Assembly: GCA_012026655.1 (NCBI GenBank)
Contig: JAAILG010001214.1
Span: 1-64,000 of the forward strand
Source: Hydrolagus affinis
Lineage: Eukaryota
DNA length: 64,000 nucleotides
Reading direction: 5' to 3'
Made by a program: the position numbers and the translations under genes
The notes under the pieces: model-generated
Database searches by the model: none
Told to the model about the DNA's origin: nothing
Seen by the model: only the letters and a program-made list of their open reading frames with translations
In this document: in pieces, positions 52,995-60,304 of the stretch
How the letters are laid out: each line of letters begins with the position of its first letter
Numbering within the stretch: position 1 is the first letter of the stretch

Positions 52995-54455
52995 CCTCTT
53001 CTCATTCTTCCTCCCAAAATGCATCACTTTGCATTTCTCTATATTAAACGTCACGTTTCTGCCCATTTTACCAGTCTGTCTATGTCCTCTTGCAGTCTGC
53101 TACTATCCTCCTCACCATTTACCACTCTTCCTAGCACTATTGCAACTTGAAAATTGCACTAACCAAATCCAGGTCATATATATGAATCATAACAAGCAGT
53201 GAGCCCAATACTGACCCCACAGGGACATCACTGTACACTTCCCTCCAGTCAGAAAAACAACCCTTCACCATCACTCTCTGATTCCTGTCTCCCAGCCAGT
53301 TCTGTATCCATGCTGCTACTGTCCCTTTAACACTGTGGGCTTCTATTTTCCTTACAAGTCTCTTATGTCTCCTATGCACTTTATCAAACGCCTTTTGAAA
53401 ATCCATATAAACTACATTAACTGCACTACCGTCATCCAACCGCTCCATTACTTCACCAGGTTTGATAGATGCAATTTCCTTTTTTACAAAACCGCGTTGG
53501 CTGTACTTTATTATTTTATTAACCCATATTTTTCTGAGTGAAAATTTATTTTGTCCCAGATTGTAGTCTGCAGAAGTTTCCCCAGCCTGAAATTAGGCTG
53601 ACTGGCTGGTATTCTCCAGGTTTATCCTTCTGCCCCTTTTTGAAAAGGGGAGTAACATTTGCAACTTTCCAGTCCTTTGGCATTCCCCCAGGAGGATTGA
53701 AAGATTCCCTCAGTAACCTAGGATTTATCCGGTCTGGACTGGGTGACCTATCTGCTCTGCGCACCGTCAACCTTTTAGTACCTCTTCTCTGTTTATTCTT
53801 ATCCTATCCAGTTTCCCTACCCTCTCCTCTGATATTGTGGCATTGGATGCATCCTTTTGTGAAGACCAATGCAAAGTACTCATTTAGTACATCAACCATG
53901 TCCTTTGCCTCCACAAGAAGATTTCCACTTTGGTCCCTAATTACCACCCCACCCTCACCTTTGACTAACCTTTTATTCTTTATATGCTTATAAAATATCT
54001 TTAGGGTTCCCTTTTATGTTACACTCTAATCTTTTCTCATACAGTCTCTTTGACCCTCGTATTTCCCTTTTCAGTTCTCCTCTGTACTTTCCATATCCTA
54101 TTTGATTAAGTTCTGTATTTTGGACCTGACATCTATCATAAGCCTCCCTCTTCTATTTTATTTTAATCCGATTTCCTTAGTCATCCAGGGGGGTTTGGGT
54201 GCCCTACGTTTGTGGGAATGTATTTGTTCTGTCCCCGAACTATCACCTGCTTGAAGACTTCCCATTGTTTGTTAACAGTTTTTCCTGCTGTATTTCTTTC
54301 CATTCCACCTTGACTAGGTCTCTTTTTAACTAATGAAATTAGCCCTCTTCCAGTAGAGTATCTTCACCTTTGATTGTTCCTTGTCCCTTTCCATAAGTAT
54401 TCTAAGCCTAATGATGTTGTGATCACTGCAGTCCAGACACTCTCCTACTGAAACC
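52995..54455 (-). mobile_element. CR1 LINE ORF2 relic from the endonuclease end through the reverse transcriptase, with deletions and frameshifts
   Basis: ORF 53137-53448: VVYMDFQKAFDKV...WIQNWLGDRNQRV...VPVGSVLG. ORF 53546-53770: DWKVANVTPLFKKG. CSDHNII endonuclease motif near 54410-54430. Confidence 0.95.
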
Positions 54456-57070: not shown

Positions 57071-59074
57071 TGGTTTGGCTAGACTGGGCAAGAGCTAATT
57101 GACAATGTGGAGATGATACAGGCATTCAGCTCTCATTGCTCCCTCAAGTTTAGTCATCGATAAGGATCACATTTCTGAAGGTGTTGGTCAGTGACTCGAT
57201 ATATAGGAGGGCTGAGGGTTGAGCCAACACCAAGGTCACATATTACTTCAAAGGTGTGAGGTATATGGTTTCCACATACATATGGATGCAGAATTGTCTA
57301 TTTAAATGGTAATTAAAATAATAATATTAATAATAATGATAATATTTATCATTGATATTCATGAATTGTAGAAAAATCTTAATAATAATCATCCTTGCAT
57401 TTGACATGGGAAGGACAGGATTCAATGTTAAGTGTAATGACTGTATTTTTGTAGGCCTAGATATCAGCCAATTTGCAGAAGCAATGTCCCACAAATAGCC
57501 TTACATTCATTATTAATTTGGAAACTAGTTCAGCAGTTCTTAAATAGCTTCCAAATTAAGGTTGAATTTAAGCATTTCACACAATTCTATGCAATCTTAA
57601 ATTTTAAAACAAACAGCCCTGTAAAACTAAATTCATCCGATTGTGTATGGAGGACACAGAGATTTAAATTGGAAATATGGCAGCAGTAACAGGATAAGTG
57701 AGTCCACAAAATATGCAGTCAATCCACTTACAGTATATACTTACAATATTTACATTTTACAGTAAGTTCCCTACTCCCTTTCTTGCTGGCTTGTTGTAAG
57801 ACTCTGCCACTGTGAAGTAGTCCAGGACATTTACCCTTGTGCTATGTCAGTGCAAGTTGTTATCCTGTGAAGAGCTTTGAGATGTCTCGACAACTTGATA
57901 AGGCGCTATATTAAATGTAAGGATTATTATGAAGGTGCATGATCCTGGAATTTGGTGTTGTGGTCTTCAGGTAAAGTTACTTAAAGCTTTTAAGATGTAC
58001 TGACAGGTTACATCAAAAATACCTCATCAGAGATACCCTAAGCAAGATTAGCAACAGCCCAGAGTCCCAGCTAGCAAACCCTGCCAATTTTTAGGTGGGT
58101 GGAAAAGCAATCATTCCAGTGACTAAGCATTGTTCTCAGTGTGGTCAGCAAAATTCAGAAAGAAGGTGTCTGAAATTCTTCCTTCCTCCATCTCATTGTC
58201 CGTAGAGTCGTTACCACAGCATCTCCGATCCCGCGCTGCAGAAGGGCTCCTGTGACAGAGATTGAATGTGACTTTTTCAGTGGCATAGCATGAAATGTAA
58301 ACAGACTCTGATTACTTTAGTTGTTTTTTAATGACATTAAACATCTCTGATCATAAACTGCTATATACATAATCAGGGCTAGATATGCTTCCAGATCCTT
58401 TGTTAACTTGAAACTTGCCATCTTACAAAGATTTCAACTTTGTCAACTGGGACTGTCAGCACCAATGTGGTTTCGCTAGCATGTGATGCACCATAATTTT
58501 TTAAATATCTTTTAATGCTGCTATGTCTGGTCCTTTTTGATGTCATTGAAATTCTATGTTATTGCTAACTGTGAGCAATTCATTTTCCACAGAAACTCAC
58601 ACGACCAAGATCTGTAAATGTATGGTCATTGGGAGAATTACCCATTGTCCCCCACCACCCCAATACAGTGAAGGACAATCAGTTCCCTGTAAATGCCACA
58701 AATATAAAAAGTGCTATATCCAATATAACTTGTTATTAATATTATTATTTCAATGCATCAATATTTGGTAGTCTGGTTTAAATGCAAGCATTATTGCCTC
58801 TGAATCAGAAGGTAGTAAGTTCAAGTTCACCCCTGAGACTTAAAACTTATATAGTCAAGGTTCAATGTTGGGTGTCCAGTACTATGTCTTTCCAATGTAA
58901 AAAGTACCAAATAATGTAAAATTGTACTTTTACATTGTCAGAGATGCTGTACAGAGATGAGGTATTGAACTGAGATACACATTTTCATTCAAGTGGAAAT
59001 TAAACATCCCATGGCACAACTCATAAAGAAAAGAGAGTTTCTCCCAGTGTCCTGGCCAACAATGTTCCAGATAA

Positions 59075-59278
59075 CAAAAACAAAAATTGCTGGGGAAACT
59101 CAGCAGGTCAAGCAGCATTCATGGAGAAAGGAAAAAGAGTCAACGTATTTCGGGTCTACAACCCTTCATCAGAACGGTTGACTCTTTTTCCTTTTTCCAT
59201 GGATGCTGCTTGACCTGCTGAGTTTCCCCAGCAACTTTTGTTTTTGTTTCAGATTCCCAGCATCTGGAATGTTTTGTT
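59075..59278. mobile_element. Penelope-like element terminal fragment (inverted repeat) with a 14-bp TSD
   Basis: AATGTTCCAGATAA at 59061-59074 and 59279-59292; inverted arms 59073-59144 and 59177-59248 (72 bp, about 3 mismatches). Confidence 0.75.
59140..59176 (-). ncRNA. Putative minimal hammerhead ribozyme core
   Basis: Minus strand reads CTGATGA-A-GGGT-TGTAG-ACCC-GAAA-TACG-TT: both conserved core boxes around a 4-bp stem II; stem III is minimal. Confidence 0.5.
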
Positions 59279-59619
59279 AATGTTCCAGATAAAATTGGCC
59301 ATACACTATATATATGTTTGTGAAACACTGCTGTGCTTAAAATGTCTGAATGCACAGTTAAAATACAGAAGTAACAACAAAGGACAAATTAAAGAATAAA
59401 TAATGCATTTTCCCATCATTTAGAGTTATCTTGTCTTTGTTGCTTTATCATGGTTAAAACAAATATATAATAAAACCATTTATACATTGGGATGAATTTA
59501 TTACTCCAATGAAACATGAAAGTAAATAAGATTTTAATGAGAATAAATAGACATTTTATTAATTTTCCCTAAGCTCTCCCTGTCATTTTATTTAATTTTC
59601 TTCACTCTGTTCTCTTAAC

Positions 59620-60125
59620 TTGGCATTGGAAAGAGTGCAGAGGAGATTTACCAGGATGGTTCCAGGAATGAGGGACTTTTGTTATGAGGAAAGGCTAGAG
59701 AGGCTAGGTTTATTCTCATTGGAGCAGAGAGGGTCACGAGGAGATCTAATAGAGGATTTCAAAATCATGAGGGGATTCGATAGGGTAAACAGGGAAAAAC
59801 TGTTCCTACTGGTGGGTATGTCAGTGATTTGAGGTCACAGATATAAAATAATTTCTAAAAGAAGCAGAGGGGAGGTGAGAGAAATCTTTTCAAGTAGTGA
59901 GTTGTTTGATTCTGGAATGCATTGCCTGAAAGGGTGGTGGAGGCTGATTCGATAACATCTTTTAAAAGAGAGGTGGGTGGTTATTTGGGGAGGACAAGTT
60001 TGTGAGGTTATGGGGAAAGAGCCGGGGAGTGGGATTGACTTTAAATAACTCTTTTCAAAGAGCCGGCACAGACACAATGGGCCGAATGGCCTCCTTTGGT
60101 GTTGTAAAATTCTATGATTCTATGA
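59620..60125 (+). mobile_element. CR1 LINE 3' end
   Basis: ORF 59620-59832: LERVQRRFTRMVPGMRDFCYEERLERLGLFSLE...RGDLIE; octamer tail (TTCTATGA)2. Confidence 0.95.
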
Positions 60126-60304
60126 ACTTATTGTGCTACAGTATTTTCAATTTAATCCACTCTGTTTGTTTCTGACCTAACTCAGCACTTACCTTTCTGA
60201 TTTTTTTTCTTTCAGTTCTCTGTCTCTGCCAATTTTATATGAAGGGAGCAACTTGACTTTAAAAGCCAATGAAAGCCTCAAAGATCAATGATTGCACTTG
60301 CCTC

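Follow-up and report, generated by a model that had tools for sequence, protein, structure and literature searches.

The fold-back insertion which occupies positions 59075-59278 (204 bp) of the window, that is, of the whole stretch of 64,000 nucleotides of Hydrolagus affinis that was analysed, consists of two short 3'-terminal pieces of a Penelope-like retrotransposon set head to head, with a target-site duplication (TSD) on either side; it was likely stitched together once, at this place, from two copies whose synthesis had started separately. We are close to certain that the hairpin is a Penelope stub formed anew at its site. The overall explanation developed below, in which such a stub results from two nicks in the target and from run-off cDNAs, is held with good confidence. 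The copy of the window has likely been dead since its insertion.

The insertion and its host repeat

An earlier reading, made from the letters alone and called here the sequence-only reading, had reported an exact duplication of 14 bp, two complementary arms and a hammerhead ribozyme (HHR) string in the loop. All of these were recovered: the duplicated sequence, AATGTTCCAGATAA, is 100% identical on both sides; the arms (59073-59144 and 59177-59248) are 72 nt each and 96% complementary, with 3 mismatches in 72 nt, around a spacer of 32 nt; and the string stands on the minus strand at 59142-59172, exactly as it had been written. The minus strand of the hairpin folds at -137.3 kcal/mol (z = -20), a value which none of 200 shuffled sequences equalled. 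What had been overlooked is an unpaired tail of about 30 nt (59249-59278), borne by one arm only. The features are collected in Table 1, where positions in the element are counted from the first base past the predicted HHR cleavage site (+1), the working reference reaching -397.

Table 1. Features at the insertion site, in the coordinates of the window
Feature	Position	Strand	Remark
Host repeat, 5' part, SINE-like	58770..59060	+	paralogs align over the empty site
Left TSD copy, 14 bp	59061..59074		14 bp is the mode among fold-backs
Tail-less arm, Penelope terminus, element -31 to +69	59073..59175	-	its 2 final nt also belong to the TSD
Minimal type I hammerhead motif	59139..59175	-	helix I 3 bp; helix II 4 bp with 5-nt loop; core 59142-59172; predicted to be cut between 59142 and 59141
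2-nt insertion in hammerhead helix III, private to this copy	about 59145-59147	-	
1-nt filler at the head-to-head junction	59176..59176		
Inverted arm, element -2 to about +69	59177..59248	+	
One-sided tail, element about +70 to +104	59249..59278	+	last third altered relative to the family
Right TSD copy, 14 bp	59279..59292		
Host repeat, continuation beyond the insertion	59293..59350	+	

When the insert is removed, six paralogous copies of the host repeat in the window align continuously over the site, as the sequence-only reading had it. This repeat is SINE-like and may be a Deu-SINE; its segment near 58770-58860 reads like a tRNA-like head, and the read depth is at repeat level at 58770-58863 and 59005-59074. 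The insertion had also been called young. It is young with respect to the host repeat, whose paralogs are 70-80% alike, but of average age within its own Penelope family: the arm mismatches of the window copy equal the family mean divergence, and at 4.5% per site a 14-mer TSD should still be exact in about half of the cases. In contigs from organism A, with 8 differences over 400, and from organism B, with 6 over 419, the tail is joined to the unique right flank. This shows that the insertion is shared beyond the assembly. No joint skipping the insert, such as an empty allele would give, occurs among the 15 joints listed out of 44 in four DNA runs. A row covering 59061-59285 in DNA run X1, with 5 other letters, is taken for a paralogous SINE.

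At the end of the tail (59258-59292), a short replacement relative to the family produces an inverted repeat of 8 bp together with the right TSD, visible as a small hairpin in the fold. The contig of organism B has no listed difference there, so that the replacement probably dates from the insertion or shortly afterwards and came from a local template.

A crude exon scan found no trace of a host gene near the insertion site. A candidate intron of the minus strand spans 58250-60192 (its donor lies at 60192 and its acceptor at 58250, after which come 41 codons and a stop); were it genuine, the hairpin would lie in a pre-mRNA, with the HHR in sense orientation and 72 bp of dsRNA. The window also holds decayed LINE RT-like fragments (59596-60119 and 53137-53993) and several other dispersed repeat families.

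The parent element and a survey of its short copies

The arm is the terminus of a Penelope-like retrotransposon of about 3.2 kb, encoding a reverse transcriptase (RT) and a GIY-YIG endonuclease, in the genome of Hydrolagus affinis. The suspected origin from a Penelope-like element (PLE) and the link to its ORFs are thus borne out: the copies with ORFs terminate in this HHR and arm, an ending present in 24 of 26 aligned copies (one of the others is unrelated and one has the core deleted), and some copies extend upstream, by graded 5' truncation, into the 3' UTR, the GIY-YIG and the RT. Pfam recognises the GIY-YIG in copy L148 (PF01541, E 1.9e-5, above the cut-off) and the RT in copy L152 (PF00078, E 3e-6, 27.5 bits, under the cut-off of 29.6); it gives no match in two of four parent ORF fragments, nothing in three fragments of L119 and only E 0.1 in L123. 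The order, RT and then a C-terminal GIY-YIG, is that of EN+ PLEs, and the window copy, inverted, 5'-truncated, with a tail at one end and a TSD, has their form. In L157, L169 and further loci the arm and tail run on into the 5' body. Hence, we concluded that the terminus is a pseudo-LTR (pLTR) and that the unit measures about 3.2 kb. First-look searches gave 3139 candidates for the terminus, 1644 for the endonuclease region, 205 for the 5' RT and 200 for the 5' body, rough figures obtained with queries of different lengths.

Some further observations concern the parent. Pyrimidine-rich AG motifs stand at element +67..+73, at the +70 start site discussed below, and near L157:630, just before an ATG of the 5' body; they look like splice acceptors, and the element may, like other PLEs, have a 5' intron. 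Seven chimeric copies (L187, L189, L191, L194, L196, L197 and L203) consist of a 5' terminus, 140-1000 nt of body and a second terminus which starts at -32..-36 and is joined with microhomology or filler; they look like template jumps, yielding short elements with two pLTRs and without a full ORF. On one contig (G000:C7797), two stretches of 3.6 kb, L150 and L151, are 99.97% identical in opposite orientation, which is either a recent inverted duplication or an assembly artefact.

We searched the 1.11 Gb genome with the 204-bp insert and scored the best 40 of the 3139 first-look candidates. All 40 are full-length fold-backs with similar outer ends. This is what one would see if, as the sequence-only reading had supposed, a fixed, non-coding, retrozyme-like fold-back of about 200 bp were transcribed, cleaved itself as a dimer and were mobilised whole; the set of 40, however, is biased towards likeness to the query. 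We therefore relied on a sample blind to layout, built from an exact 33-mer of the arm (441 matches genome-wide; control, 0). The first 100 of the 441 matches fall in 90 sites, of which 87 were analysed, three fold-back sites being left out as already present among the best 40. This sample represents one subfamily, well-preserved copies and the longest contigs, and gives fold-backs two chances of being picked. It comprises 47 fold-backs, 39 solos and 1 complex site. TSDs were found in 44 of the 47 fold-backs, with a mode of 14 bp, and in 20 of the 39 solos; a duplication of at least 12 bp flanks 41 of the 47 fold-backs, against 5 of 200 random positions of the window searched as a control for chance.

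The centres of the fold-backs are different in all 47 cases (22 overlaps, 3 blunt joints, 22 with filler). This means that the hairpin is remade at each insertion and is not copied as a unit. The tail side, left in 24 and right in 22 of the fold-backs as listed, and the side of the spacer vary too, so that a 204-bp unit mobilised on its own is not supported. Random copy ends had been named as the mark of an ordinary truncated Penelope end: the centre is indeed variable, but the positions of the outer ends (+104 and about +70), and likewise of the inner end (about -32), are far from random. In two fold-backs the filler is long (52 nt in L106, 30 nt in L067); that of L106 looks like the terminal part of a repeat which is common locally, which suggests that another template was captured at the junction.

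Ends of the pieces and a model of their formation

The tail is present on exactly one arm in 46 of the 47 fold-backs and on both arms in none, whereas 23.5 would be expected under independent draws (P 3e-13). The 3' ends are bimodal, 72 of 135 arms ending at +101 to +104 and 55 at +56 to +77, and the solos use both sites (26 near +104, 13 at +67 to +77). In 4 of the 47 fold-backs, the inverted piece is made of the tail only and ends at +65 to +69, beside an arm which ends near +70; the interval from +26 to +64 contains no other 5' end. Microhomology at the +70 end does not clearly exceed that at the tail end (1.5 versus 1.0 nt, P 0.08), by a biased measure in which the extension past +104 is one base short.

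We propose that these ends arise as follows. The endonuclease would nick both target strands about 14 nt apart, the distance recorded in the TSD; nicking of both strands in vitro is described for an anole element (PMC11167929). The two 3' ends would then prime RT inside the element RNA, one at +104 and the other at about +70, where the pieces end, so that a tail of 30-35 nt is left on one arm only. The cDNA begun at +104 would usually displace the one begun at +70 and continue; sometimes it would stall at +65 to +69, where the four abutting copies have their junction. Both cDNAs would run towards one set position, about -32, where the HHR has its front edge, inner ends cluster and transcription would likely start. 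Their ends would finally be trimmed and joined head to head, as the variable centres with microhomology or filler suggest, and the HHR would for this reason fall in the loop. Two-nick priming appears fairly probable to us; we read the arms as made from two primers on a single RNA, mostly with displacement of one strand.

The same Penelope stub may also be obtained by self-priming (snap-back) of one strand, which would produce the inversion, followed by partial loss of the centre, a model already in print, proposed by Arkhipova et al. 2013 (PMC3846280). Such an origin agrees with the sharing of variants between the arms of one insertion: non-reference bases are shared about 7 times more often than in permuted pairs (17 in 1864 sites; 0 of 2000 permutations), both in the set of 47 sites and in 28 sites of the best-40 set. 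It also agrees with the several fold-backs that are near-perfect palindromes and with the inner 5' reach of the arms, which is equal or nearly so in 18 of 46 fold-backs. The tail-less arm, however, reaches further in another 18, including the window copy (from -31, against -2 for the tailed arm), and the tailed arm in 10; snap-back requires a later deletion to leave the tail-less arm longer. A snap-back palindrome that lost sequence asymmetrically at its centre could look as though its arms had been made unequal. The use of both 3' ends by solos and the four abutting cases at +65..+69 also speak against self-priming, as do the arms that differ at diagnostic sites: among 33 cases of diagnostic variants (three sites, both sets), the variant is in both arms in 20 and in one arm only in 13. 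We hold this origin to be unlikely. No later homogenisation of the arms is seen: they diverged independently, and their divergence (4.1%) matches the mismatch between TSD copies (4.5%, 28/622). The 13 one-arm variants exceed what is expected if both arms always came from one RNA, and leave room for two templates in a minority of insertions.

We now consider the inner end, where the two cDNAs of the proposed mechanism would stop. Of the 92 arms which reach -28, 68 stop within -36..-28, or 0.14 per nt as compared with 0.005-0.02 elsewhere; for solos alone the figure is 19 of 31. This zone is the 5' strand of helix I, at the front edge of the HHR. Arms extending beyond -36 (24 of 133) show that read-through templates exist. 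A search with the 5' body gave 42 matches, and 30 loci were fetched. Among five independent copies reading from tail to body past the cut site, three stop at -31..-34, one has a complex structure near -31 and one goes on to -156. Independent junctions from body to terminus start at -32..-36 in 7 of 13 cases, with the AG kept and none after a GT donor, as expected if RT runs off the end of the RNA and then jumps. The sequence at about -32 resembles an initiator. This position is likely the start of transcription and the 5' end of the ordinary transcript; in D. virilis, Penelope transcription starts inside the pLTR, from an internal promoter (PMC2377424). We lean slightly towards a run-off at this start. 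RNA reads on copy L210, from two runs of one sample, form no pile of molecule starts or ends; they lie on both strands, and 73% continue into unlike sequence.

Other origins of the -32 end were rejected. A splice acceptor, although an intron ending at helix I is known in D. virilis (PMC4209133), is contradicted by solos without a shared upstream exon (20 listed; in the 12 with a TSD found, it lies within 0-18 nt) and by body junctions which keep the AG and lack the GT. Stalling of RT on the folded HHR should stop it at the 3' edge, where the rate is only 0.005 per nt. If HHR-cleaved RNA were the template, ends should accumulate at the cut, and only 11 of 127 arms end within -8..+10, without excess.

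One may ask whether the mobile unit is instead the solo of 136 nt (-32 to +104), acting as a SINE-like secondary source with its own internal promoter and both RT start sites, the fold-backs being by-products. Its 5' and 3' ends are fixed (-36..-28 is the starting zone of 19 of 39 solos), termini are more numerous than the 5' body (3139 versus about 200 at first look, with queries of different lengths), the Penelope of D. virilis has an internal promoter (PMC2377424) and pLTRs suffice for mobilisation in trans (PMC3846280). Yet the commonest short-copy variants compared (+31, +30, +6, -29) are also found in ORF-bearing copies, an identical product is obtained by run-off from the full-length mRNA, no new source being needed, and the solo is devoid of the 55-60 nt past the RT start sites that the anole element needs (PMC11167929). 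Such a unit is, in our opinion, quite improbable.

Returning to two-nick priming with run-off, we put forward, tentatively, a wider reading of the stubs. They might record missing steps of Penelope replication: a dimeric enzyme priming at both nicks on the tail boundaries, strong-stop cDNAs running off where the mRNA has its 5' end, at the front edge of the HHR, and a jump from there onto another element RNA which would build pLTRs and partial tandems. If so, the transcript would begin with the hammerhead, as its first 35 nt, and every copy would carry it as a passenger.

The hammerhead and comparison with known systems

The HHR boxes, expected to recur across copies, are the norm of the family, the majority of 62 arms having a complete core. 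Helix I of the family has 4 bp, position -29 being U in 42 and C in 19, both of which pair with G+1; helix III is the palindrome ACGU, which fits the published dimer model (PMC4209133). Losses in the core are concentrated at CpG positions (G12 is kept in 49 of 62, G8 in 55 of 62), as in neutral decay, like any dead copy. The window motif has the core boxes, helices I and II and the extra base before helix II of the minimal type I HHR of PLEs; its helix III, AUACGU, is not palindromic. A reading of the string GAAA-UACG-UU as a designed motif is not supported: the string contains a 2-nt insertion present in 1 of 140 motif occurrences scanned, the window's own. According to folding energies, forming the HHR would cost +15.2 kcal/mol in the window copy, with a probability of 0.003 that the cut site is unpaired, as compared with +3.2 and +3.7 in two intact solos and +50 in the fold-back L099. 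As the inverted arm pairs with the cut site, the window HHR is predicted not to fold, and it is predicted to be inactive. The Rfam check that had been advised detects no hammerhead family at E up to 10; its 11 matches, all below the gathering score, are mostly models of miRNA hairpins, which fit any long stem, and were set aside. Copies continue past the cut site, which agrees with an uncleaved RNA as template (PMC11167929). We regard the HHR as a passenger of the parent's terminus. For the fixed, self-cleaving fold-back this means that the core intact by majority, a point in its favour, has to be set against the CpG decay, the arms that block the fold and the lack of any tandem array at the site; with the 47 different centres, that proposal is already largely refuted and seems to us extremely improbable.

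The closest relatives are EN+ PLE units such as Pen2a_Av and others, with an adjacent inverted pLTR, a one-sided tail of 30-40 bp and a TSD (PMC3846280); such units are described in general in PMC8557442, and form C of D. virilis in PMC2377424. The window family shares with them the head-to-head inverted 5'-truncated copy, the tail at one end, the TSD, a parent with RT and C-terminal GIY-YIG, and an HHR in the terminus. It differs in that the window unit is reduced to two pieces of about 100 nt without ORF, in the TSD mode of 14 bp, against 8-10 bp in the examples considered from A. vaga (PMC3846280), and in the inner ends piling up at the HHR front edge. With published minimal HHRs of PLEs the motif has in common the core boxes, the extra base before helix II, G10.1-C11.1, a short helix I and a palindromic 15.2-16.2. 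Those are mostly single motifs from truncated PLEs, with pairs 100-700 bp apart on opposite strands; the window copy differs by its non-palindromic 2-nt insertion in helix III and by a cut site sequestered by the second arm.

Poseidon of Anolis carolinensis in vitro (PMC11167929) likewise has two internal RT start sites which bound the tail, both strands are cut and extended, and the uncleaved RNA is the template. No strand difference in start site is reported for it, whereas the window family uses one site per arm (46/47), and no inverted products are reported in the parts of the paper at hand. Non-LTR retrozymes (bioRxiv 10.64898/2026.07.22.740005) are also non-coding, with a type I HHR, and derive from PLE pLTRs; they are defined as tandem repeats of at least two HHR units, unlike the single inverted pair with one complete motif found here. 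The window contains no second sense copy, two pieces in the same direction occur at 1 of 87 sites (L113), and no constant unit is copied whole, as the 47 differing centres show.

In L1 twin priming, the inverted 5' piece comes from a second primer on the other target strand. The four abutting copies carry this signature; in contrast to L1, the cDNAs of the window family usually overlap by 70-100 nt and are primed at two fixed internal sites.

Publications thus already describe the inverted pLTR with one-sided tail and TSD, minimal HHRs lying on opposite strands and a pair of RT start sites. A literature search, with most subscription papers outside its scope, returned no paper that treats twin priming or run-off cDNA for PLEs and none on such hairpins in cartilaginous fish; the origin of the inverted ends and one-sided tails of PLEs is called unresolved in PMC8557442. 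The single insertion of the window is an ordinary dead copy, and the statistics of its family matter a little more: the tail rule (46/47), the abutting copies and the stop at -32 yield sharp predictions for the in vitro system of PMC11167929.
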